IMG/VR virus record: IMGVR_UViG_3300022745_000018
Location: 96,001-160,000 of that record
Direction: 5' to 3' (one strand)
Length of the DNA stretch: 64,000 nt
From: a virus
Below the pieces are notes generated by a model, which saw only the letters and a list, made by a program, of their open reading frames with translations, had not been told where the DNA came from and ran no database searches. The position numbers and the translations under genes are program-made. Shown here one piece after another: positions 3,035 through 22,525 of this stretch (the stretch's first letter is position 1; every line of letters begins with the position of its first letter).

Positions 3035-3969
3035 TAGAAAAAATCTCCGATTTTGGTGTATAGTTCTTTCATCCCTCGAGACGAAAGGTGGTTCAAGAGT
3101 TTCATTTTGTTGAAATTTCTTTGATTGGTTGATTCATTATAACATTCAACGATGCCCGTGTAAATTTCTTTTGGGATCCTTCGATAGTCAATGAGAGTTC
3201 TGTTTCTATCGAATCCAGCTCTGATGTCGTCAGGCTGCCCTTCATGTGGCTCACGACCTGCTTTATGAGCGGTAATGAATGATGCACAAAATTTCTCGGT
3301 AATTGGTTTCTGACGGTCGTTGTTGACGAATGTATTATCTCCCATTCGGATGTTGGGGATGTCGTCACCCCCGTCACCACCAATAATCTTCTTCAGTAGA
3401 TAGATGTCGGCTGAGCAATCGCCTTTCACCATCTTCTTCTTGACCGGATGCCATTGCTTGACATTTTTGTATGTCTGCAATTGATAGTGATCTGTGTCGG
3501 AACTGATGATGAGGATTTCTTCTACTTCTGGATCGCCAAAGATGTTGGTGTCTTCGCTAACACGTTCAGAAACACGTTTCACTAAAGCACCGATGATGTC
3601 ATCACCTTCCGCTTTAGGATATTTCACCACAGTGAAAGGATAGAAGTTTTTCAGATCTTCGATGATTGAATTCTGAACTTCTCCAATGAACTTCCAATCG
3701 ATGCCGCTTTCGTCCGAACCACGATTCAAACGACGGCGGTACTTATAGTTCGGAAAATAGTCACGGCGCCATGAACTGTTGTCGCATGCAATCACCATCT
3801 CCGTCCCATATGTTGGTTTGTGTTTGACGAAATTGAAACGCAACGAATTCAAGACAGTGTGAGTTAGAATGTTCTTCGATTCTTCACACGGATTCATTGC
3901 CGCCGACTTCAGAACTCCATCCGTATGAATGGGAGCCAAGAAGATTTGAGAAAAGTCTACGATGATCAT
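3034..3969 (-). CDS. rnh: T4-type RNase H / 5'-3' exonuclease
   Basis: MIIVDFSQI, SWRRDYFPNYK, EGDDIIG, ISSDTDHYQL, GDGGDDIPNI motifs. Confidence 0.95.
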   Translation of the reverse strand: MIIVDFSQIFLAPIHTDGVLKSAAMNPCEESKNILTHTVLNSLRFNFVKHKPTYGTEMVIACDNSSWRRDYFPNYKYRRRLNRGSDESGIDWKFIGEVQNSIIEDLKNFYPFTVVKYPKAEGDDIIGALVKRVSERVSEDTNIFGDPEVEEILIISSDTDHYQLQTYKNVKQWHPVKKKMVKGDCSADIYLLKKIIGGDGGDDIPNIRMGDNTFVNNDRQKPITEKFCASFITAHKAGREPHEGQPDDIRAGFDRNRTLIDYRRIPKEIYTGIVECYNESTNQRNFNKMKLLNHLSSRGMKELYTKIGDFF

Positions 3970-4128: not shown

Positions 4129-5160
4129 TTAGTCTTTGAATTTTTCCAACCATGCATTGGAAACAGCTTTCACAATTTCCTTACCATCGGTTGATTTGAA
4201 CACCAAGCCTTCACGTAGAGTTCCCGTTGTACCCAAAACAGATTTACCATCCGCCGCTTCAAGAATCTTCTTGATTGTATCGCCGGGTTTGAACTTGAAC
4301 GACACATAATTGAAAATCGGTGCTTGCGGTAGAGCCATCTTTGTCAACAAATCTTGGCGTTCGATTGGTGTCAGGAAATTTCCATTCGATTGCACTGTAA
4401 ACAGAGCTAGATAAGTCTGATTGAGATTGTATTTGTTGCCTTGTACACTGTTGCCGTAGATTTCACCCTGGAGAGCATAACCATCCAGATTGTATGCACG
4501 CATCCGCTGTTCAATCTCATATTCACGAGCAGTCTTCCAGTAGAGATTCTGTTTGTCTTCAACGAGATTGATGTTACGTGAACAGACAATGAATTCGCCA
4601 TCGATCAGAGCAAACGTGACAGACGTTCCGTCGATCTTTTCAGACACTTCCCAAGTCATTTCAGATTCAATCCATTGTTCCAATGAACGATTGAGGTTCT
4701 GAATTCGTTCGCAATCTGTTTTACGGATAGTGGCGGGGAAATTGCCCTTCTGAACTCCAGCCAAACAAGCTGGAATCGGTGGTTCGTATTTGAGGACACC
4801 TAGAAGCTCAGTTACATCGGAACCAGGTTCAAGGAGCGACAATTCTTGCTTGATGGTGATAGGCAACAGCAATCCCTGTGACAGTTCACCGCGGAGACGA
4901 ATTGTCCGCAGTTTTTCACCTTTCACACCACAGTATTCACGCGGTTCTTTTCCTTTAGAGAGGAACGGTGCCAATTCAGTTGGGACCCACGAATCGACTT
5001 CAAAGTAGACCGCGACATCACCAGCTTTGAATTCGCCTTTTCGGATGACGACTTGCCAACCACCAATCATCGCAAGTTCGAGGGAATCCGCATTTGAGTG
5101 AACATTGACTGAATCGATATTCACAATCTTCGCAAGTTTTCGTTTGATTTCATCTTCCAT
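4129..5160 (-). CDS. ATP-dependent RNA ligase, DRB0094 family
   Basis: N-terminal RKLA..NAD.LE..GGWQVV..GEF..GD.AVYFEVDS domain; EKIDGTS adenylation motif; QGEIYG, REGLVFK, KAVSN. Confidence 0.92.
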   Translation of the reverse strand: MEDEIKRKLAKIVNIDSVNVHSNADSLELAMIGGWQVVIRKGEFKAGDVAVYFEVDSWVPTELAPFLSKGKEPREYCGVKGEKLRTIRLRGELSQGLLLPITIKQELSLLEPGSDVTELLGVLKYEPPIPACLAGVQKGNFPATIRKTDCERIQNLNRSLEQWIESEMTWEVSEKIDGTSVTFALIDGEFIVCSRNINLVEDKQNLYWKTAREYEIEQRMRAYNLDGYALQGEIYGNSVQGNKYNLNQTYLALFTVQSNGNFLTPIERQDLLTKMALPQAPIFNYVSFKFKPGDTIKKILEAADGKSVLGTTGTLREGLVFKSTDGKEIVKAVSNAWLEKFKD

Positions 5161-5202
5161 TCACATACTCCTTCATGATGTTAATTTTTTGTCCACGGGA
5201 TG

Positions 5203-5232
5203 ATTGTATCAAGAATCTTTCATGTGGTAGTT
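5203..5232 (-). promoter_or_regulatory. class B promoter (ACCACAT-N13-TACAAT) for RNA ligase
   Basis: Member of a nine-copy motif family; this copy has a 13 nt spacer. Confidence 0.7.
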
Positions 5233-5237
5233 ATCTA

Positions 5238-5897
5238 TCAAACACGGAAAGCAAATCTAATGTCATCGCTGATGGTGCTAAGAGATAGTGACTTGTCTCC
5301 AACAATGATCAAAGAACCTCCGTTCGTTCCGATTGAAAAATGAACGAAGTCCATCATTTCACGCAAATCTCTATCAGATGCTATTGAAGGTTCGTCAATA
5401 GCCAACAGATCAAGTCTCATGCCTCTGGTGGCCGATATTCCAATAGTGTTATAGAAAATCTTTGAATGATTATCAAACCCCATACAAGATGCGCAATTTA
5501 CATCCAATTCGAGCTTCATGAAATCTGGCATATTCTGATGCATGTACCAGATTATCGATCTGATGGCATCACCCATCTTTCGATTCGGTGTAGCGCACAT
5601 GCATATTACGTCTTGTTTGAATCTAGCAAACCAATATACATATGCCGCTAAAATAGTAGTCGTCTCACCGGTCGAACGTTCGGCTTGCCAAACAACTTTC
5701 TTTTCGGTAACAAAGCTCTTGATAACATTCTGTTGCTCATCGGATAGTTTCAAAAGAACTTTAGAGTTTGCGCGATCGTAAATGTTAGACTCGTCTGTAC
5801 CATTCCAAACATAACAATAGTTGCTAATGAAATAGATCGGGTCTTCAGCACACCTCTTAAACTCTATCAGTTCTTCGGTATTAGACACAAATTTCAT
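5238..5897 (-). CDS. truncated terminase large subunit (gp17) ATPase-domain paralog, degenerate Walker A
   Basis: RCAEDPIYF, ERSTGETT (cf. SRQLGKTT), MPDFM, FDNHSKI, RG..DLLAIDE; ends at 219 aa with no nuclease domain. Confidence 0.82.
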   Translation of the reverse strand: MKFVSNTEELIEFKRCAEDPIYFISNYCYVWNGTDESNIYDRANSKVLLKLSDEQQNVIKSFVTEKKVVWQAERSTGETTTILAAYVYWFARFKQDVICMCATPNRKMGDAIRSIIWYMHQNMPDFMKLELDVNCASCMGFDNHSKIFYNTIGISATRGMRLDLLAIDEPSIASDRDLREMMDFVHFSIGTNGGSLIIVGDKSLSLSTISDDIRFAFRV

Positions 5898-6367
5898 TTC
5901 AGAACCTCTGGTGCAAGTCTTTCCATGATATCGTTCAATTCAGTAAACGATAGAGACATCGACAATCTTGTTCCAATGTCCGCATTCTTGACGCGGGCAC
6001 TCAAGTAGATGGTGCTACAGATGGATAGTTTGAAGACGTTATCCAAGATATCTTCTTCTTTTTCCATGACTAAGGACTCTGCTTGAGAAACAATTGCACT
6101 CAATAGAGACAGATTCTTAGCGGCTTCCTTTTCAGGTAGTGTGTACTGTTCGATATTCTTGACGTTGAGGATAACATCGATAGTACCCTCACTAAAGAAG
6201 ACGAACCACCCAATGTCGGATGTAGATAATGAGTCTAGAAGGTCTTGCACCGTATAGTATGTACGATCCTGTAGCATCTTGGCTGCGTGACGAACTAGAA
6301 GCGGTAGAGATGTGTCCGTGATAATCAATTGCGGATTGACGTACATCTGTTCAAAGGAATCACTCAT
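5894..6367 (-). CDS. hypothetical protein
   Basis: Overlapping start/stop packing between gp52 and the terminase-like gene. Confidence 0.7.
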   Translation of the reverse strand: MSDSFEQMYVNPQLIITDTSLPLLVRHAAKMLQDRTYYTVQDLLDSLSTSDIGWFVFFSEGTIDVILNVKNIEQYTLPEKEAAKNLSLLSAIVSQAESLVMEKEEDILDNVFKLSICSTIYLSARVKNADIGTRLSMSLSFTELNDIMERLAPEVLK

Positions 6368-7664
6368 TAAGCATCTCCAAATATCTTTCAGTTGGTGTTA
6401 CCTTTGATAAAGCAGCGAATTCCGATTCGCATTTCTTGATTTCAAGTCTAAGACTCTCCACCTCATCGGTCGTACAGTTATATAACGGAATGCCAGTGAA
6501 CTTACTTCCGTATTCTTGAGTAGTAATGTTTTCTTGAATGTATTCAAGAAGCTGGCTCTTGGACGTCTTCCTAAAATCAATCTTATTGGCGATCACTGCC
6601 TCAATGAATTTGATTTTGTCCTTCAAGAATGCCGAACGGTCACTAAGGTTCTTCAGTTCATATTCAAGTTTCTCAGAAACTTTCTTTGTTCTGTATTGCA
6701 CGAAATAGTGAACGAGTTCAGCGACAGAATTGAAGATCTTCAGTTTCCCATCAACATCGAGTGTTGTTAGATTCTCTGAATGGTTCTTTTCAAGTTTGAA
6801 GTACTTATGCGGGTTCTTTTCAATCTTTGACTTCTGTTCACCAGAGACTCTGACTGTAAACCCAAATCCTTCACCGGAACAATTGTCGGTGTAATCGCGA
6901 ATTAGACCTTCGTTCTCAAGTTCGTTCAAGAACTCAACATATTTTTCACGGTCATATCCGATAGGCAACTCAGTGATTTCGTATGTGTATTTACCGACAT
7001 ACTCAATGATGCCTCTAGTTCTCCAAGAACCGTCTTCATTATCAACAACCTCTCCTCTGAAATGAGGGAATGTTGGTTTGATTGGTTTATTGGCCGCTAA
7101 GTATGCATCGGGGTTCTTGATACATTTCTTGACGGCATCAACAACATCATTGGTGGAATGAGGTAAAATTGTGGATGCGAAACCAACCGCGATCCCTGAT
7201 GTACCATTGATCAAAATCCAAGGGATGATTGGGAGATAGTGAGCTGGTTCTGGATTGTCTTGATCCAAAGCCTTGGGAGCAACTTCGATATCTCTGAACC
7301 ACCGTTTGTAGTTTTCTGATAGAGAAACATAGATGTAACGTGGAGCAGCTGCATCTTGAATCAAACGACTGCCGAAGTTGCCGTGGGCTTGAAAGATTGG
7401 TGCATTGTTTGACCATTCGGCGGCCATACCAATGACAGCACCAATCGCGGACGCTTCTCCGTGATTGTAATTATACCTAGAGATTGAGCCTAAGTCAGCG
7501 CATTTAGTCTTCTTACCACCGTAACCATCAATAGATGCATATAGCAATTTCCTAGTGACGGCTTTCAGTCCATCGATGACATGAGGGATCGCTCTATTCT
7601 CAAGCACATACATTGAGTACTGTCGGTACTCATCGTTGATAATTTCTGAGATTGATTTGTTCAT
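6360..7664 (-). CDS. 52: DNA topoisomerase II medium subunit (GyrA/ParC-like)
   Basis: RAIP..IDGLK..RK, YNHGEAS, GNFGSR, AAPRY catalytic Tyr, LINGTSGIAVGF. Confidence 0.96.
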   Translation of the reverse strand: MNKSISEIINDEYRQYSMYVLENRAIPHVIDGLKAVTRKLLYASIDGYGGKKTKCADLGSISRYNYNHGEASAIGAVIGMAAEWSNNAPIFQAHGNFGSRLIQDAAAPRYIYVSLSENYKRWFRDIEVAPKALDQDNPEPAHYLPIIPWILINGTSGIAVGFASTILPHSTNDVVDAVKKCIKNPDAYLAANKPIKPTFPHFRGEVVDNEDGSWRTRGIIEYVGKYTYEITELPIGYDREKYVEFLNELENEGLIRDYTDNCSGEGFGFTVRVSGEQKSKIEKNPHKYFKLEKNHSENLTTLDVDGKLKIFNSVAELVHYFVQYRTKKVSEKLEYELKNLSDRSAFLKDKIKFIEAVIANKIDFRKTSKSQLLEYIQENITTQEYGSKFTGIPLYNCTTDEVESLRLEIKKCESEFAALSKVTPTERYLEMLNE

Positions 7665-9517
7665 TTCTTGATCATTTCACAGGCAGAAGACAAACCTTCA
7701 CCAACAAGCCATTCTTTTCTAGGTAATGAAGATTCGCCGAATGCCATTTCCAATGGAGCGAAGTCGTCCGCAGTAACTTCCATGATGACTGGGTTGTTAA
7801 TGAATTCCTTGTAGACTTCTTTCGGCATTGTGCCGAGACCTTTGTAATAACTGACGTCCCAACCTTTTGAATTGAAAGCAGCATACTCTTCATGCGTATA
7901 GAAGATCTTCATCTGCTTACCTTTTCGGCAATCATACAGAGGAGCTAACATTCTACAGATTCGTTTCTCAGTGAACAATTCTGGCCAATTGCTAAACAGA
8001 TTGAGTAGCAAACAGAAGATCGCGGCTCCATCGGTATCGCTATCTGTGATGATAGCGATCTTGCCGTAATTCAAATCAGTTGCCTTCTTCCCGAATTCCA
8101 AACCAATGATCGATAGCAATTCAGAGATTTCTTTGTTCTCCATGATTTTTAGAGGGCGCATCCCACGGACATTCATGATCTTACCCTTAAGTGGGTAGCC
8201 GCCAATCTTCTTCGGATCGCGAACGGCAATCAATGGACCGATAGCAGATAGACCCTCAGCGATGCAAAGGATTCTGTTTTCAGGATTCTTATCTGTAGCG
8301 GCAATGTGGTTGACGACAGTAATTCGTTTAGATTGTTTCTGTTTTGCCGCGAGTTCCCTACGTTCAGCCAAGTCCTTCTTATATAGGATAGCCTCAATCA
8401 TCGGATCAATGATTGACGGTGTGGAAACAATCTTTTTGGAAATCGATTCAAAATCAACCGACGCAAAGATAGGACTGACTTCACCCCAAGAATTTGTGAT
8501 GCGCTCCTTCGTCTGAGATTCAAAACGAGGAGCATTGAAATTCCGAACCCAGATCGCAAAAAGTAAATGCTGTTTGATCTGATTCGGAAGAACATCAATC
8601 TTGTGCTTCTTCTTGATAAAAGCACGAAGAGATTCGATGATTTGTTGCAAGCCATAGTCCACATGAGAACCACCCAGCTTCACATGAATACCGTTCAGAT
8701 AACTGTGAACTCGGAATTCTTCATTAGCACCTGATGGAGCCAAGACAAATGCTAGTCCAGAATCTTCGTGATAGATGGCATCATCGTGGAATTTCTTCGC
8801 AATCTGTTTGATGTTCTTGAACTGAATCTTGGTTGTCTCTGAACCGATCGTCAGTTTGAACGTGATCTTTGGATACATAATGGCTGCATTCACCAGACGA
8901 TCACGAATCATGTCAATATGATCCTCAGTGAATTCCTTTAGACCGAATCTAGCCAAATCTGGAATGAACGATACGATGGTACCACGTTCTTTTCCACCGC
9001 TTTCGATTTTCCAATCCATCTCTGCCCGATTGTTCTTACAAAGAAGGACGAGTTTCTTTTTACCGTCACGAGTCTCTCCTCTAAATTCAGTAGAGAAGAT
9101 ATTCGTCAGCGCCGCCCCCATCCCGTTCGTTCCACCGGTGATTCGTTTTGAATCATCGAAGTTAGAACCAGCACGCAACTCAGTCCATGCCCAAACTGGA
9201 CGTGGTTTACCATCAATGATCTCTTGAGGAATGCCACGTCCATTATCTGATACAGTGATCATCGTACCGTTATAGGTATCCGCAATCTCTAGACCAATTT
9301 CTGTAGAGAATTCACCAGAAGTACGAATATGCTCATCAATAGAATTCTGAATGATTTCGTCGATGATCTTCAATAGACCAGGGACTACGATCTTTTTCTG
9401 CCAGACACAATCAATGATGCCTTCATATGGTTCTGCAGTGATAGATCCGATGTAAACACCAGATCTAGCAAGCGCATGCTCACGGTCAGATAATACCTTG
9501 AATTCTTCGGTCGTCAT
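7661..9517 (-). CDS. 39: DNA topoisomerase II large subunit, fused gp39+gp60
   Basis: EIIQNSIDE, DNGRGIP, GSNF, GGTNGMG ATPase motifs; EGLSA, PLKGK, DSDTDG TOPRIM; YYKGLG. Confidence 0.96.
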   Translation of the reverse strand: MTTEEFKVLSDREHALARSGVYIGSITAEPYEGIIDCVWQKKIVVPGLLKIIDEIIQNSIDEHIRTSGEFSTEIGLEIADTYNGTMITVSDNGRGIPQEIIDGKPRPVWAWTELRAGSNFDDSKRITGGTNGMGAALTNIFSTEFRGETRDGKKKLVLLCKNNRAEMDWKIESGGKERGTIVSFIPDLARFGLKEFTEDHIDMIRDRLVNAAIMYPKITFKLTIGSETTKIQFKNIKQIAKKFHDDAIYHEDSGLAFVLAPSGANEEFRVHSYLNGIHVKLGGSHVDYGLQQIIESLRAFIKKKHKIDVLPNQIKQHLLFAIWVRNFNAPRFESQTKERITNSWGEVSPIFASVDFESISKKIVSTPSIIDPMIEAILYKKDLAERRELAAKQKQSKRITVVNHIAATDKNPENRILCIAEGLSAIGPLIAVRDPKKIGGYPLKGKIMNVRGMRPLKIMENKEISELLSIIGLEFGKKATDLNYGKIAIITDSDTDGAAIFCLLLNLFSNWPELFTEKRICRMLAPLYDCRKGKQMKIFYTHEEYAAFNSKGWDVSYYKGLGTMPKEVYKEFINNPVIMEVTADDFAPLEMAFGESSLPRKEWLVGEGLSSACEMIKK

Positions 9518-12410: not shown

Positions 12411-12432
12411 TATCTATTTATCTCTGTCTAGA

Positions 12433-12916: not shown

Positions 12917-14269
12917 TCATTTTGCTACCGTATCGAACCAAGTGTTAACACCAGCGAAGGCACGTTCACGGATCTCGTCAAACGTTGGCCTGTAAAGAAC
13001 CTTACCGTTTTCGTAGTAAGTAACGAAGTCAGCAGAATCTTGATTTCCGCCCTTCGATTTCTTACCAGGATCCGTGATAGGATTCTTCACTGTTTTGACA
13101 GCCTTGCCACCAATGATCATCTCAGATGTTTTCTGAGCAAACTTGGATGTGTCACGTGTAACGGATTGCAGCAAGCCACCACCTGAGCCTAGCACGACAC
13201 ATTCGGGAGCATACCCGAGGTCAACCACTTTCTGCATTAGCATCAAAGCAGTGGTTGGGTTGATGCCATCGCCTTGAATGATACCGACATTGTTGATCAC
13301 TTTCTTGCCTTTGCTATTGATCTTGTAACCAAACGCATTACTTTGCATTTCAAGCAGAGCAGGCACGACTTCGAACATATCACCTGAATCTGGACGGAAC
13401 ACGACCTTGGCTCCAGAATTCACGATCTGTTCTTTGAACGTCGTACATAGGAGAGCAGCTTCGCGGAAAGTATTGTAACCATCAATCACGATGGAAACAA
13501 TAGAACCAGGTTTCGCATAGACATCAAGCATTCGCTTGAGATATTCATGTTGACCGCCTTCACCGTACGAACATTGGACGCTGTGTTCAGATGCAGGAAC
13601 TGAGAATCCGATCGGACCCTTTGCTCCGTAATAGTGTTTAGCGTACTGCAGAGCAGCGACATTGTCTGTACCGCTAAAGAAAACCAAATGGCCAAGACCG
13701 CCGACACCTGAAGATTCGAACGAGGTGGCGCCACGAGAACCGAAGTCATTCAAAGCAAATGGAAGATTTCCTGGATTGTCTGATGCAATATCATAGAACC
13801 ACTTCAGCGACTTGTAGAGTTCTAGACCCTGAGATGCGATCGTGGTGGGATACCAGACAGATCGCTGCATCGCAGTCTCGATGAACGATGCCAGGGTTGG
13901 GCACTTTGGATCCGTGGAAACAACAGACACAATTGCGGTGTTTGAAGGGACAACTTGACCCTCAGGAATACCACGAACACGAAGAGGTAGGAATCCGCCG
14001 TGTTTGTTGAGGACATGTTCCCACATCGCTCGGTCAAACGGTTCACCGTGTGGAACGATCAGTTCTTCCGCTTCGTCAATGTCAGCTTTTGTGATTGGTG
14101 TTTCCAGCCAGTCCTTGATATAGACACTTAGACCTAAGGGGACGATTCGTTTACCAGAAACACGCGGTTCAATGTACGAATACATCGATTCGGTTCCGTT
14201 TGGATAGACTGCTAAAGTCTGACTGTATTTGTACGAATCTGCACTGAGAACTACATTTTTCTTGAACAT
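12917..14269 (-). CDS. nadV: nicotinamide phosphoribosyltransferase (NAMPT)
   Basis: DSYK, WYPTTIAS, DFGSRG, SVPASEHS, FRPDSGD, IQGDG, GSGGGLLQ..RDT, K.P.TDPGKKSK. Confidence 0.96.
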   Translation of the reverse strand: MFKKNVVLSADSYKYSQTLAVYPNGTESMYSYIEPRVSGKRIVPLGLSVYIKDWLETPITKADIDEAEELIVPHGEPFDRAMWEHVLNKHGGFLPLRVRGIPEGQVVPSNTAIVSVVSTDPKCPTLASFIETAMQRSVWYPTTIASQGLELYKSLKWFYDIASDNPGNLPFALNDFGSRGATSFESSGVGGLGHLVFFSGTDNVAALQYAKHYYGAKGPIGFSVPASEHSVQCSYGEGGQHEYLKRMLDVYAKPGSIVSIVIDGYNTFREAALLCTTFKEQIVNSGAKVVFRPDSGDMFEVVPALLEMQSNAFGYKINSKGKKVINNVGIIQGDGINPTTALMLMQKVVDLGYAPECVVLGSGGGLLQSVTRDTSKFAQKTSEMIIGGKAVKTVKNPITDPGKKSKGGNQDSADFVTYYENGKVLYRPTFDEIRERAFAGVNTWFDTVAK

Positions 14270-14293
14270 TTTTAACTCCTATAGATGTTCGGT

Positions 14294-15298
14294 TTAACAC
14301 ACTTGAGATTTGTAAGCCGGTTCTTGAACCACACCGGTCATTACTGAGATGATGTCTTTATGATCATCAAACATAGCGATACTGTTGAGTGCTTCGGATA
14401 AAGGCACCCATCGGCAACTAGCAGCATCATCACGCCCATTTGCTCTCGGCAGAGAACCATCCTTATCAGGTTGAATTCTAATATGAACAGCAAGGGTGCT
14501 TCTTGGGATCCCCATGCAGCGTGTAGGATCGTCAAATAGACGCGTTCCTACAATCGAACCACGGAGAACTTTTTCTGGGACACGAACATTCGTTTCTTCA
14601 TTGAGTTCGCGGATAGCGCAGTCCAAGAAGGTTTCGTCGCGATTTTTGAAGCCGCCTGGTAAAGCCATCGTTCCTGCGCCGGGTGCAAACTTTCGTTCGA
14701 TCAGAAGGATGTGGCCATTGCATTCCAAGATAGCATCACCACAATTGAAATTGAGTGTATCTGGGTATGGGTATTTAGCGAATGCAACCTTCTCACGTTC
14801 ATAGAAAAGGTAATCACCTAGTACCGTTTCTGGTACAGACCGATCTCGTTCAGCAAACAACTTGTTGCGGATCGTTGTTGCATCTATAGCATGAGATGAT
14901 TCTACGCTACGGAATTCAAATTCCGGGAACCAATTCAAATAATCATTCCCGATCTTGTAATGACCGAACAGAATGACTTTTTCGTCAGGTTTTGCTAACG
15001 AACCAATCGTCATCCTAACATCGGTGAGCCATTGCCCATCCGAATAACGATAGTCGTTCAGCGGAGCAAATTCCACTCTAGAGAGATCGATTTTGCTGTT
15101 TCGCATAGCGACGATTAGTGCTTGTACACGTTCGCTATACGTCCATGGATTTTTGATCGAGCGGCATTGGTTAGCTGAACCAACCAAAACCAGTAAACGA
15201 TCCACTTGAGATGCGGCTACACCCAACAAGTGCATATGGCCAGCATGCGGTTTTCCAGATTGAAACCGCCCAATAACAACTCCTACAGTTTTCTTCAC
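14294..15298 (-). CDS. natV: bifunctional NMN adenylyltransferase / Nudix hydrolase (NadM-Nudix)
   Basis: IGRFQ..HAGH, GSAN..KNPW, AT.IR; ALPGGF...E....AIRELNEET Nudix box; DDA, FDDH; GTG start. Confidence 0.95.
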   Translation of the reverse strand: MKKTVGVVIGRFQSGKPHAGHMHLLGVAASQVDRLLVLVGSANQCRSIKNPWTYSERVQALIVAMRNSKIDLSRVEFAPLNDYRYSDGQWLTDVRMTIGSLAKPDEKVILFGHYKIGNDYLNWFPEFEFRSVESSHAIDATTIRNKLFAERDRSVPETVLGDYLFYEREKVAFAKYPYPDTLNFNCGDAILECNGHILLIERKFAPGAGTMALPGGFKNRDETFLDCAIRELNEETNVRVPEKVLRGSIVGTRLFDDPTRCMGIPRSTLAVHIRIQPDKDGSLPRANGRDDAASCRWVPLSEALNSIAMFDDHKDIISVMTGVVQEPAYKSQVC

Positions 15299-18347: not shown

Positions 18348-19700
18348 TTACGAGTAAACCCTGTCCTGCTCAGCGACTAGAGATAACGTAATTGTTTTAG
18401 ATCTTGTTAGTGTTCCTGTTGTCACCACAAACTTTCCGGAACCTGGCTTAATACCAATCAGAGTAACTGCTCTATCCGTTCCACCAGTAAATCCGCCCTG
18501 CGTATTGCCATCGTAGTCATATGTAAACGAGATAGAACCTGAAGAAATTGTACCAGTGATAGGTGTACCGGATGCATCATTAACTGTGATTGCACCGGAT
18601 TCGCCGTAATCATTACCAGTGCCGGGAGGAGATGTGAACATCAGACGATATGACGAACCTGCACCAATCAGAGGTGAATTAGCACTAATCACACCAGAAG
18701 AACTGTATGGGTTAGTGCGCTTTGTATTTGAATCGTCGTAGAACTCAACTCTGTTACTATCAGCAGAGGCAACGTTATCAATGTAGACCGATTGGCTAGT
18801 GACCAACGTATCACCAACGAATGTTAGCAAGTCTGGTTGAATCTTACCAATCTTTGCACCAGCTGTACCGGAAGAATTGATATCTGATGACTGTCTCAGC
18901 AGATACTGAATCTTCGTGTAAATCTGTTCCAAAGATGCACCATTGCCATTGATGATGATCTTGAAATTATACGAAGTACCACCAATCGTCCTTGATTGGT
19001 TTGCCGTGTAATATGACACAGTGATACCTGAATACGGTGAACCCGTCATTGCCCCGTCGGCAGCTTGAATCTTCAAGTCATCTTCGTTGGCGATCAAGAA
19101 GTTAACTTTGTAAGCACCTGTACCAGTCGCACCGGTATCAGCCAAGATAGATGACTTGTACTTTTTACCATATTCACGAACGAATGTCTTGGCGTATGTT
19201 CGTTTATCTAGGTTGCCGTTCGTTGCATCACCAAACACTTGAACACCGACGTTGAATTGGTCAGTGAATGGGAAGTTGATTGGGGAATCAGTGGCACCTA
19301 GGTGGTAATACGGTTGAGCACCAACGTTGATAGAACCCAAGCCAATGAAACCGGCATATTGACGTTGCAGCAAACCAGCAGACGAATACTCTGACCAACC
19401 ACCATCACGTAACATATTGCGAGTGGTATCATCAAACCAAGTCCAACCTGAATACGTTGCACCATCAGTACCCAACTGAAACTGACCTGACAATGCGTCA
19501 ATCGCATACATCGGGAACGGTGAATCTTGATACGTTACAGTCGCCCACGAGTCCACCAATTTCGAATAGACGGCCTGCAGTGTAACGCCGTCTTTCGCAA
19601 CCAAGTTGCCAGTTGCGACTAATCTAATCGTCTTTGCAGTTTCGTCGATGATGATCTCTGTGCCGACGTTTAGCAGGGACTTATTTGTAATTTTTGCCAT
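18348..19700 (-). CDS. putative virion structural protein, 450 aa
   Basis: Thr/Gly/Ser-rich beta-type composition; GAGG RBS; AATAAATA upstream. Confidence 0.65.
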   Translation of the reverse strand: MAKITNKSLLNVGTEIIIDETAKTIRLVATGNLVAKDGVTLQAVYSKLVDSWATVTYQDSPFPMYAIDALSGQFQLGTDGATYSGWTWFDDTTRNMLRDGGWSEYSSAGLLQRQYAGFIGLGSINVGAQPYYHLGATDSPINFPFTDQFNVGVQVFGDATNGNLDKRTYAKTFVREYGKKYKSSILADTGATGTGAYKVNFLIANEDDLKIQAADGAMTGSPYSGITVSYYTANQSRTIGGTSYNFKIIINGNGASLEQIYTKIQYLLRQSSDINSSGTAGAKIGKIQPDLLTFVGDTLVTSQSVYIDNVASADSNRVEFYDDSNTKRTNPYSSSGVISANSPLIGAGSSYRLMFTSPPGTGNDYGESGAITVNDASGTPITGTISSGSISFTYDYDGNTQGGFTGGTDRAVTLIGIKPGSGKFVVTTGTLTRSKTITLSLVAEQDRVYS

Positions 19701-19729
19701 GTTTCAATCCTCTAATTTCAAGTATTTAT

Positions 19730-22525
19730 TTACGAATAGTTTCTATCGACAACTAAACTAACTGGTATCGTTGAATTTGTTGTCGTGAGGGCCAGGTTGC
19801 GAATATAGTAAGGTACATACCCGGCTTTAATGAAACCTACATCGATGTTCTGAGTACCAGAATATGTATATGTATACGAAGACGTTGAATTTGCATCCAC
19901 GCTCGCAAGAATTGTTGTCGTGCCACTTGATAAGATCACGACATCGCACCCAGTTGGTAAACCAGTGAACGTTACTGTGTTGGAGTCAAGCGCATAGTAA
20001 TTAGCTTGCGCGGTTGCCGTTGAAATGGTATTGACATAGAACGATGTGATCGCCGTGGTATTGGTGACGGTCGTTGTTATCTTTAGACGCAACTTCACGC
20101 CTTTTGTTGGATCTAATACACCCAAGCCGTTGAGTGCTGTACCAAGTGTCGTTGCTGTGTAGTTGGCTGTAGTCATTGTTGACCAACCAACGCCATCGTT
20201 TTTATCTACAGAGAAGTTGTAGTTATAGTTAGTTGCAGTACCACCAGCCATGACCGCTGCTGAGTTGGTGAATTGTGTATGACCGAGGGCATAGTACAGC
20301 ATTTCAAAGGTTGCAGTTTGCCCGATGGTTGGCATGTATAGACCGCCAGCTGCAGTGAACGCAGAACCATTTGTCAACGCAACTTGCGAAGCAGTCGCCG
20401 TTGTCGCCTCATTCATTAGAATCGCAATTCTACCAGTTGTGGTTGCGGTGAAATGATCAAACCAATGTGTCCCGTACACGGCAGTTTGTGCAGCGTATGT
20501 AGGTGTAGAACCACAACCGCGCGTCGTCATATTCAACATACTATTAACCGGGGCATCAGCATAATCACCCATACAATTATCCGAGAAGATAAATGTTGAT
20601 GAGTTGTCACCAGAATATAAATTCGTCCTCGTCCCTGAACAGAACAACCTTTGCATATAGATATATGAAGCAGCGGCACCAGCGCCGATGGCGCAAACAG
20701 TACCAGTCTGATTCACAGAACCCAAAGATAATTGAGACAATGGGGAAGTCCCAATATTGCGTAATTTGATCCTAGTGCAACCAGCAGCGTTGATTGATAG
20801 AATGGCGGTATAAGGATGAGCATCAGCTAAACCACCGAAAGTTAAGCCATCAAACATGCAATCTGACGTAGCTAAGGCAGTCTCCCATACTGACATTGGG
20901 TTTGTTATTGCTGTTGCTACACCGGAATCGTAATACACTGCATTAGTGAACTTTAGATTATTACATGCCGTTAATAGATATCTTCCATGACCTATCACTG
21001 GCTTCGTCCAAGTGCACGATCCCACACGAGTTAGCGTTGCGCAACCAGTCGTCGCATTGGCTCTAATGACAAATGAGAATTCTTTACACGAATTGAAGTT
21101 AAACCCCGTCATGTCGGATAAGGATGACACGTATCTACCAGCAAGTGCAAGTGTAGCTGACGTGAAGACGCAGCCATTAAAATCACCACCAGCGAAACAC
21201 AGAGACATCAGTAAACCGAATTGAGCATTAGCTGCTTCTTGTCCAACAGCAACACGATATATCTTCATTGGCTGAGCGATCTCAGATAGAGACAATTGTG
21301 TAGCCACTGCAGCAAATCTCATCTCTACTGAGTACGACTGGCTGAATGACGGATACCAATTCAATAGTACCTTGTTCATCTTAGTCACTCCACCACCGGT
21401 AGTAGTAAAGTCAAATCGCGTCGCTAATGTTGCGTTCGGTAAAACGTTAGCGGTTCTAGCAGCCGTCGTATTATTTGCCGTAATGATGTTAGGGATTCTA
21501 ACTCTTCTACCCGATGTAGGTACATAACCAACAGTGTTTGTACCGTCGGAACCAAATCTCAGAACGCCAGCGGTAGATACCCAACAGACTTTTCCACGAA
21601 CCGCATCCGTTGGTGTAGACGCAGCAGCCAAAAGAGAACCTGCACATGGGTATGCTTCAGGCACAACAGCTGAACCGCCGGAAACATATGTGCCTGGATT
21701 TGCACTGGTGACGGTGAATGATGTAGATGTCACTGCGGTGATTTCTAAATCAGCTACGTTGTACCCAGATGGTGAAGCACCAGTCACGGTGACTTCGTCT
21801 CCGACTAAGAATGTGTTGCTTGAACACTGGTATGTGATGGAACCACCGGAATATGAAGCACCAGTGATAGTGACCACATCTGAATCGACATAGACGGCTG
21901 GGTAATACTGAATACCACCGTTAGTCGGTAATTGATATGTTGTTGTTGATAGACCAGATGTCGTACCGGCTGAATACCATGCACCATAGATCTCAACTGA
22001 ACCGAGGCGGTTCACTATGAACCCAGCCGACTCATCACCATTTACTTCAATGAATCCAATTGTGGGTGCACCAGAAATAGTGAATGTGAAACCTGCCTGT
22101 GTGAATGTGCCACTTGATGGCAATGTGCCAGAAACATTGGTGACTTTAAGGAAACCTGTTGCCACACCTGTTAAAACTGGAGCAACGTTGACGGCTGAAT
22201 ATAAACCGATTGTGTTTGCAGTTGTCGTGGATAAAGTAATTGGCGCACCTGCGGTCAATGAACCAGAACCAGCAGTGAATGGGATCAACCAGACCTTCGT
22301 TGCATCGATGATAAACTTACCACCCTTTGATGCATTGATGGTAATGTTCCCCCATGTTGTTGAAGTAGTGCCGCCTAAACCATACCGGCTATCCTGATCT
22401 TGAGTGACAGTCCAACCGTTCGTATCAATAGTGTCACCGCCAGTTCTAGCAGTAGCGACACCCCAAATTGCGGCATTACCTACATCTCGTAGGGTACCGT
22501 TGCCGGCCATGGTAAAAGCAGTCAT
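19730..22525 (-). CDS. large putative fibre/spike protein with beta-helix-like middle, 931 aa
   Basis: Very Thr/Ala/Gly-rich; repetitive beta-strand spacing in the central region. Confidence 0.65.
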   Translation of the reverse strand: MTAFTMAGNGTLRDVGNAAIWGVATARTGGDTIDTNGWTVTQDQDSRYGLGGTTSTTWGNITINASKGGKFIIDATKVWLIPFTAGSGSLTAGAPITLSTTTANTIGLYSAVNVAPVLTGVATGFLKVTNVSGTLPSSGTFTQAGFTFTISGAPTIGFIEVNGDESAGFIVNRLGSVEIYGAWYSAGTTSGLSTTTYQLPTNGGIQYYPAVYVDSDVVTITGASYSGGSITYQCSSNTFLVGDEVTVTGASPSGYNVADLEITAVTSTSFTVTSANPGTYVSGGSAVVPEAYPCAGSLLAAASTPTDAVRGKVCWVSTAGVLRFGSDGTNTVGYVPTSGRRVRIPNIITANNTTAARTANVLPNATLATRFDFTTTGGGVTKMNKVLLNWYPSFSQSYSVEMRFAAVATQLSLSEIAQPMKIYRVAVGQEAANAQFGLLMSLCFAGGDFNGCVFTSATLALAGRYVSSLSDMTGFNFNSCKEFSFVIRANATTGCATLTRVGSCTWTKPVIGHGRYLLTACNNLKFTNAVYYDSGVATAITNPMSVWETALATSDCMFDGLTFGGLADAHPYTAILSINAAGCTRIKLRNIGTSPLSQLSLGSVNQTGTVCAIGAGAAASYIYMQRLFCSGTRTNLYSGDNSSTFIFSDNCMGDYADAPVNSMLNMTTRGCGSTPTYAAQTAVYGTHWFDHFTATTTGRIAILMNEATTATASQVALTNGSAFTAAGGLYMPTIGQTATFEMLYYALGHTQFTNSAAVMAGGTATNYNYNFSVDKNDGVGWSTMTTANYTATTLGTALNGLGVLDPTKGVKLRLKITTTVTNTTAITSFYVNTISTATAQANYYALDSNTVTFTGLPTGCDVVILSSGTTTILASVDANSTSSYTYTYSGTQNIDVGFIKAGYVPYYIRNLALTTTNSTIPVSLVVDRNYS

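Follow-up and report, generated by a model that had tools for sequence, protein, structure and literature searches.

Why would a phage that encodes a complete DNA-packaging terminase also carry, among its replication genes, a second and apparently dead copy of the ATPase core of that enzyme? The question is raised by IMG/VR record IMGVR_UViG_3300022745_000018, from which a stretch of 64,000 nucleotides, here called the window, was analysed (G000:C1:96001-160000 of a 171,909-bp viral record, 99% complete, with a guanine-cytosine (GC) content of 42.8%). The carrier is a freshwater T4-like phage, and the gene in question, P0001, encodes a protein of 219 amino acids (aa). Large terminase subunits (TerL) are highly conserved, well studied and a main target of bacterial pattern-recognition immunity, and a large family of stand-alone, often dead TerL ATPase cores has been left without an assigned role, the literature mentioning it only in passing. 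P0001 is a genuine accessory gene that has been maintained, and a divergent, relocated member of this truncated TerL, or mini-TerL, family, which has been noted but is uncharacterised. The protein probably acts by binding and not by catalysis, and the best explanation as a whole, to which we give a probability of about one in three, is a non-catalytic mimic of the TerL core that acts on the phage's own terminase (TerL and/or the small subunit, TerS). New in P0001 are its lack of linkage to terL, its single subdomain and the replacement of the P-loop Lys by Glu with Walker B retained; a mini gene can thus be uncoupled from terL, placed in a replication operon and trimmed to one subdomain. Whether the protein proves to be a regulator or third component of the terminase, or a decoy for immunity or competitors, the biology would be new.

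The gene and the motifs on which its interpretation turns are the following.

5238..5897, minus strand: P0001, mini-TerL gene, 219 aa, a stand-alone copy of the gp17-type terminase ATPase subdomain I (from the open reading frame (ORF) call, PHROGs and the structural model)
5658..5678, minus strand: degenerate Walker A R-S-T-G-E-T-T, P0001 residues 74-80 (from the sequence)
5664-5666, minus strand: GAG codon (Lys to Glu) in the Walker A of P0001 (from the sequence)
5391..5408, minus strand: Walker B L-L-A-I-D-E, P0001 residues 164-169, with Asp168 and Glu169 retained (from the alignment)
5292..5300, minus strand: position of the coupling (C) motif, G-D-K in P0001 and S-T-P in full-length relatives

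Both sequence and structure place P0001 with the ATPase domain of T4 gp17, as the earlier note, made from the letters alone, had proposed for this 219-aa ORF, which lies on the minus strand. Its best match in PHROGs is phrog_5989, 'terminase large subunit' (E 1.9e-26), and in Pfam the two matches, AAA_30 (23.1 bits, cut-off 27) and AAA_19 (18.2, cut-off 25.1), are both sub-threshold. The sequence alone reaches gp17 at E 1.7e-5 and the family profile reaches it at E 2e-67. An AlphaFold2 model built on 72 relatives has a predicted local distance difference test score (pLDDT) of 91.7 and a predicted template modelling score (pTM) of 0.90; in Foldseek it matches the ATPase domain of gp17 best (TMq 0.82, E 1.7e-15), and VIA-align lays residues 1-219 onto gp17 98-311 with Z 25.8 and a root-mean-square deviation of 2.1 Å over 207 residues, whereas DEAD-box helicase domains reach a Z of only about 14. 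Compared with T4 gp17 (PDB 2o0h, 2o0j, 3cpe), P0001 thus has the fold of ATPase subdomain I and the same order of motifs, namely the N-terminal helix KC..DP.YF, the P-loop Arg-x-x-Gly and Walker B hhhhDE, at 19% identity. Subdomain II and the RNaseH-like nuclease domain of gp17 are missing, the model stopping at gp17 residue 311. Following the gp17 structure papers (Sun et al., 2007), we take gp17 residue ~313 to be the approximate end of N-subdomain I, and if this boundary is right, the modelled protein would be a clean single subdomain rather than a random stump.

The motif state is equally that described in the earlier note: Walker A with Glu for Lys, G-D-K in the place of the C-motif, LAIDE kept and no nuclease domain. 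In the P-loop context Q-A-E-R-S-T-G-E-T-T, Glu stands in the lysine place (GKT to GET), and the deviant lysine of the lambda-gpA type is absent as well, the second residue before Arg being Ala, so that P0001 has neither kind of P-loop lysine; Arg and Gly of the P-loop are retained. G-D-K follows LIIV, at positions occupied by [ST][ST] in 51 of 59 long relatives. The protein is acidic, with an isoelectric point of 5.3, whereas the corresponding stretch of the phage's own TerL is basic (9.35), and PHROGs and Pfam scans gave no match to a TerS family. Most of the 14 nearly invariant positions of the family (about 11, counted by hand) are retained. Judged from these motifs, P0001 almost certainly hydrolyses no ATP.

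The GAG codon is read from the source assembly alone, at a depth of 16; contigs of independent runs are 100% identical where they overlap, but the nearest of them begins at 5667 and so misses the codon by one base. Three more freshwater runs, made in different studies, have contig pieces identical to parts of 4900-5817 of the window, which shows that the phage recurs in fresh water. One of the matching pieces comes from an RNA library; it covers 4900-5212, the 5' part of the RNA ligase gene, and ends before P0001.

Does the phage depend on P0001 for packaging? A separate gp17 was found elsewhere in the genome, far from P0001, in agreement with what the earlier note had supposed about the distance to any packaging gene and had asked to be confirmed. 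The real terL lies at G000:C1:58869-63562, 42 kb from P0001, with an intact Walker A, R-Q-A-G-K-S, and its product, spliced in silico, has 545 aa and is 64% identical to its nearest relative (P0149); by its sequence, the resident TerL is catalytically intact. A gp16-like TerS is encoded at C1:32497-32907, after gp14 and gp15 and 69 kb from P0001 (phrog_445, E 1e-20 and 8e-22). A split terminase with P0001 as its ATPase half was rejected, as the exteins of the real terL themselves supply an intact ATPase and a nuclease domain. A recent duplication of the resident terL was likewise rejected, the identity between P0001 and TerL being 31% over 158 aa and the starred clade of the resident TerL excluding P0001. 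A role as TerS substitute was discarded because the gp16-like TerS (phrog_445, E 8e-22) exists beside the mini, as it does in Xanthomonas phage Xoo-sp13 (E 7e-18); in Serratia phage BF no match to phrog_445 was found, so the idea may still apply there. The coexistence of P0001 with TerS and TerL, its lack of linkage to them and its single subdomain all speak against a TerS substitute and reduce the possibilities to a binding mimic.

The earlier note had treated the gene as a one-off, and on this point it has to be corrected, for P0001 is one member of a large family of mini-TerLs. An exhaustive HMMER scan of 1.84 billion representative proteins returned 1035 relatives, none of them more than 38% identical to P0001; a megablast of the P0001 region against phages gave no match, and a word-based protein search matched P0001 only to itself. 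The motif counts that follow refer to the best 150 of the 1035 relatives, and 'mini' denotes proteins of 290 aa or shorter, which make up 76 of these 150. A P-loop Lys of either kind is lacking in 29 of the 76 minis, and 26 of those 29 also lack the Walker B Glu; among full-length TerLs a Lys, classic or deviant, is present in 55 of 58, the other three being alignment gaps caused by inteins. Some short matches with intact motifs may be fragments at contig ends or pieces split by inteins (e.g., P0134); the dead ones cannot. The scoring of 'dead' terminases also has to allow for a deviant lysine, since in a full-length clade without the classic G-K-[ST] (P0012, P0016, P0029, P0040, P0076, P0107, P0121, P0122, P0140, P0143) the Lys has moved upstream, in a motif K-S-R-Q-x-G-[ILMV]-S that we take to be the lambda-gpA-type deviant Walker A, with its lysine two residues before Arg. 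Against a profile made from the short relatives P0001 scores 203.9 bits, from an alignment that took in P0001 itself.

The uncultured minis (P0002-P0150) have the same domain in 180-290 aa, with P0001 at most 38% identical to them, and every readable context in which they are found is a packaging module. A mini stands immediately upstream of a full terL in L005, L006, L007/L008 and L013, immediately downstream of it in L004, and after gp15 and the portal gene in L014. In motifs, the closest to P0001 are P0062, which has the same state (no Lys, Asp-Glu retained, G-D-x at the C-motif), and P0077, which ends I-I-V-G-D-D; nearest in the tree are P0080 and P0070. Both P0080 and P0077 are encoded directly before terL, and P0070 lies in a gp15-gp20 module.

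Cultured phages carry the family too, which makes the question of what mini-TerLs do a testable one, and in Xoo-sp13 and Serratia BF the mini adjoins terL. Members have been annotated variously as 'small terminase', 'large terminase' or 'helicase'. For example, Xoo-sp13 gp242 (L020 3241-3936), a 'terminase small subunit', is matched by the mini-TerL profile at E 2e-44 and reads R-E-S-G-T-S and L-L-D-V, with neither a P-loop Lys nor a Walker B Glu; like the phage studied here, Xoo-sp13 has its genuine gp16-like TerS elsewhere, about 7 kb from gp242. Unlike P0001, gp242 has 231 aa, includes the subdomain II part and occupies the slot just before terL. Further cultured carriers are Serratia BF, whose gp272 has lost the catalytic residues (R-E-C-G-I-T and F-D-D), and Yersinia phage fHe-Yen9-04, whose g267 ends, as P0001 does, soon after the C-motif position. 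The passing mention in the literature, made in the CBB genome paper of 2017, concerns CBB_274, a truncated gp17 that all Rak2-like phages, as well as PhiM12 and PhiN3, are said to have in addition to the terminase and that was 'considered to be unusual' (PMC5259590). With these Rak2-like copies (CBB_274, BF gp272, Yen9-04 g267) and those of Sinorhizobium phages PhiM12 and PhiN3, P0001 shares the state of a stand-alone, nuclease-less paralogue coexisting with a full TerL. The relationship is only distant, however: all these copies lie immediately upstream of terL, whereas P0001 is 42 kb off in a topoisomerase/RNA-ligase operon and, unlike them, retains the Walker B Glu. CRJP21 gp_354 (L024 2235-2939), annotated 'helicase', occupies the slot before terL and has, by eye, a similar lysine-less P-loop.

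How long have such genes been kept, and under what constraint? In a FastTree phylogeny P0001 sits on a branch of 1.22 beside the short P0080 and P0070, without starred support, and 58 of the 76 minis share one half of the tree, separate from the TerLs. P0002, P0003 and P0005 cluster with the L004 and L007 TerLs, P0002 being encoded beside the L004 terL, which makes more than one origin of minis possible. Between the syntenic loci L005 and L013, identity is 37.5% for the minis and 43% for the TerLs, and of the two minis one looks dead and the other intact; minis thus persist over long spans and can do without catalysis. In a pair of Eneladusvirus genomes (L021 2220-2930 and L023 2257-2814) the minis are 46% identical, at 236 and 185 aa, whereas the TerLs are 93% identical and TerL and the flanking genes 90-95%. 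The nonsynonymous divergence (dN) is 0.44 for the mini and 0.044 for TerL, with about 0.04 for TerL and the flanking genes together, so that the mini evolves roughly 10 times faster than TerL, with the acceleration confined to one gene. The ratio of nonsynonymous to synonymous divergence (dN/dS) of this dead Eneladusvirus mini is ~0.3, with dS near saturation, and serves as a proxy, as P0001 has no orthologue. The expectation in the earlier note that homologs would not be decaying neutrally agrees with this proxy and with the retention of family members in synteny.

How might such a protein act? A TerL fold without the Lys and the C-motif, without subdomain II and nuclease, acidic, and accompanied by a full terminase set elsewhere points to an inert protein acting by binding. 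P0001 would be incapable of ATP hydrolysis, of DNA translocation or cutting and of portal docking, and would instead exert its effect by binding, through its structural likeness to the TerL ATPase core. It would bind the phage's own TerL and/or TerS and restrain or time the assembly or activity of the terminase, and it would probably be made with the replication genes, ahead of packaging. The terminase itself is suggested as the partner by the place of the family beside terL, an identification that we hold tentatively and regard as rather doubtful. Several observations weigh against this explanation. P0001 is unlinked to terL and terS, and the argument from adjacency covers its relatives, not P0001; a mini at 46% identity next to a TerL at 93% in Eneladusvirus is hard to square with a tight TerL partner; and relatives with a gp52 52-65% identical have no orthologue of P0001. 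To our knowledge, most T4-like phages package their DNA without any such protein.

The timing proposed above depends on the surroundings of P0001, where the following features were found.

5894..5897, minus strand: ATGA, in which the start of P0001 and the stop of the orphan ORF before it overlap (translational coupling)
5894..6367, minus strand: orf157, orphan ORF of 157 aa, coupled upstream of P0001
6360..7664, minus strand: gp52-like topoisomerase II subunit (from PHROGs/Pfam)
7661..9517, minus strand: gp39-like topoisomerase II large subunit, first gene of the chain
4129..5160, minus strand: RNA ligase gene, 77 nucleotides (nt) downstream of P0001

P0001 is the last gene in an overlapping four-gene chain (gp39-like, gp52-like, orf157, P0001), in which the gp39-like and gp52-like genes overlap by 4 nt and the gp52-like gene and orf157 by 8 nt. 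The coupling downstream of topoisomerase II that the earlier note had described is thus right as regards the chain, and has to be amended in that the ATGA overlap is with orf157, not with the topoisomerase gene. No homologue of orf157 was found in 5.8 billion proteins, and it has no family match and no confident fold (a poor Atlas model). P0001 closes with two consecutive stops, and the RNA ligase gene begins only 77 nt further on, so that a nuclease domain would not fit on the 3' side of P0001, which has not been shortened by a nearby frameshift.

After gp52, relatives with a gp52 52-65% identical have neither a TerL-like ORF nor orf157, and the same was found for three IMG/VR relatives with a gp52 37-39% identical; their post-gp52 slot holds unrelated small ORFs, in one relative ADP-ribosyltransferases. 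P0001 and orf157 are therefore a lineage-specific insert in a variable accessory slot. The GC content of P0001 is 0.397, compared with 0.426 +/- 0.024 for the genome, its GC at third codon positions and codon score are within 1 standard deviation, and all its GC and codon usage values lie within ~1.2 standard deviations of the genome means. There is no sign of a recent foreign import, the composition matching that of the genome.

The T4 late promoter consensus TATAAATA has 0 occurrences in the 64-kb window, and sigma-70-like promoter matches are below shuffle expectation. A candidate late promoter of this lineage is the motif ATAAAT[AT]/ATTAAAT, which is overrepresented immediately before many genes, above all the structural genes at C1:17-33 kb. 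In the window, sites resembling ATAAAT[AT] lie at 12421, 15332, 19729, 22984 and 24371 (minus strand), and there is none between 1600 and 12400 on the strand of P0001.

Might P0001 have no function at all, being a relic, a terminase fragment captured in the variable region and drifting toward loss? It is a singleton without an orthologue in relatives, sits beside an orphan ORF and on a long branch of the tree, and has lost its catalytic residues; C-terminal length, moreover, varies within one genus (236 vs 185 aa, the Eneladusvirus pair). Drift is harder to reconcile with a frame of 219 codons that is still open at no more than 38% identity to anything else, the chance that a random frame with the same length and base composition is open being ~1e-6 by our own estimate. 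The relic would also have to end, as the model suggests, exactly at a subdomain boundary, to retain most of the 14 near-invariant positions together with a confident model, and to preserve its ATGA coupling with a composition ameliorated to that of the genome, and even a dead mini, that of Eneladusvirus, is still at dN/dS ~0.3. A functionless relic is, on balance, rather improbable.

A different partner is supposed by the conflict roles, in which P0001, and perhaps dead mini-TerLs generally, would be a mimic that soaks up TerL-sensing receptors (Avs1-3 or similar) or caps rival motors; taken together, these are unlikely. If true, this would give the first case of a phage protein that serves as a decoy of a conserved viral pathogen-associated molecular pattern. 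In the immune form, which the earlier note had favoured, an early, inert TerL look-alike would occupy the sensor domains of Avs1-3 without activating them and shield the phage. The TerL ATPase fold is retained with its catalytic site lost, and the model of P0001 also superposes on 8dgc_E, the TerL chain of an Avs3 complex (Z 19). AlphaFold-Multimer predicts that the ATPase domain of phage TerL contacts the sensor domain of KpAvs2, and the binding of TerL to KpAvs2 has been confirmed by co-purification (PMC11564622). The variable accessory slot next to RNA ligase, which in a relative holds ADP-ribosyltransferases, the fast evolution of the family and the position in a replication operon, suggesting synthesis before the late genes, would all suit an anti-defence protein. 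Binding of the target, however, itself activates Avs, and there is no precedent for such a decoy. Ksap2, a small stand-alone phage protein described as having a weak structural likeness to a TerL ATPase domain, triggers KpAvs2 instead of blocking it, although it differs from P0001 in having no detectable TerL sequence homology and in being an immune trigger (PMC11564622). Avs sensors also envelop the core of their target (PMC13581612), and P0001 has neither subdomain II nor a nuclease domain to offer. Most family members lie beside terL and are conserved in that slot, unlike typical anti-defence islands. We give the immune decoy a small probability.

The other conflict role, likewise raised in the earlier note, is that of a poison subunit which would be built into the terminase of co-infecting phages or satellites, or cap it, and so stop their packaging. 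It draws on the same accessory slot, missing orthologues and fast-evolving family, and on P0001 being an inert copy of a motor domain that oligomerises. It is made very improbable by the absence of subdomain II, which faces the portal in T4, and by the fact that P0001 is 31% identical to its own TerL and at most 38% to any TerL, so that a specificity for competitors is undefined; no satellite or competitor is known. Hardly credible, finally, is an enzyme or nucleic-acid handler, a RecA-like domain reused in replication or repair with topoisomerase or RNA ligase through some non-canonical nucleotide chemistry, as the retained Walker B Asp-Glu and P-loop Arg and Gly, the weak AAA_30 and AAA_19 matches and the co-transcription and coupling with replication genes have to be set against Glu in place of the phosphate-binding Lys with no alternative Lys, an acidic protein (isoelectric point 5.3), helicase-domain matches at Z ~14 against 25.8 for gp17, and a single RecA-like subdomain without a second lobe.

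The resident terL has an architecture of its own, being carried in three ORFs that are parted by two atypical split inteins.

L018 (G000:C1:58501-64000), 369-1043: piece of the fractured terL locus
L018, 1012-2235: piece of the fractured terL locus
L018, 2165-2911: piece of the fractured terL locus
L018, 2931-3948: piece of the fractured terL locus
L018, 3926-5062: piece of the fractured terL locus

The first intein interrupts TerL at Walker B, the second where its ATPase and nuclease parts meet. Their N-terminal fragments (IntN) have 45 and 31 aa and their C-terminal fragments (IntC) 125 and 104 aa, and both carry Cys1 and a +1 Cys. Each intein also has, between its halves, a gene for a free-standing HNH/NUMOD3 endonuclease; the second endonuclease, homologous to the first, extends over two overlapping frames (L018 2931-3296, 121 aa, and 3187-3948, 253 aa), and is either frameshifted and decaying or dependent on a recoding event. 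The same fractured layout with atypical split inteins is known from the terminase locus of Dassa et al. (2009), where this 'fractured gene' arrangement was described with a terminase intein broken at an unusual point (PMC2677866), and from AceL-TerL and GOS-TerL, which represent a class of atypical split inteins (PMC11766414). Two inteins of the AceL-TerL type in one terL would be useful parts for protein engineering. The slot upstream of terL, which in T4 is that of gene 16, holds an ORF of 90 aa, and terS is found 26 kb off, after gp15, so that the packaging genes are dispersed in this genome. This 90-aa ORF (L003 1135-1407; G000:C1:58593-58865), directly upstream of terL, is rich in Gly, Ser and Cys and looks PAAR-like by eye.

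Elsewhere in the window, 18348-22525 (minus strand) contains two large ORFs, of 450 and 931 aa, that belong to no PHROG family, and the only relative of the 931-aa protein in the phage database, 45% identical, comes from an uncultured Caudoviricetes contig from Manatee Spring. Two genes for the salvage of nicotinamide adenine dinucleotide lie at 12917-15298 (minus strand), one for a nicotinamide phosphoribosyltransferase and one for a bifunctional adenylyltransferase/NUDIX protein; large T4-like phages, among them the KVP40-like ones, also have such a pair.

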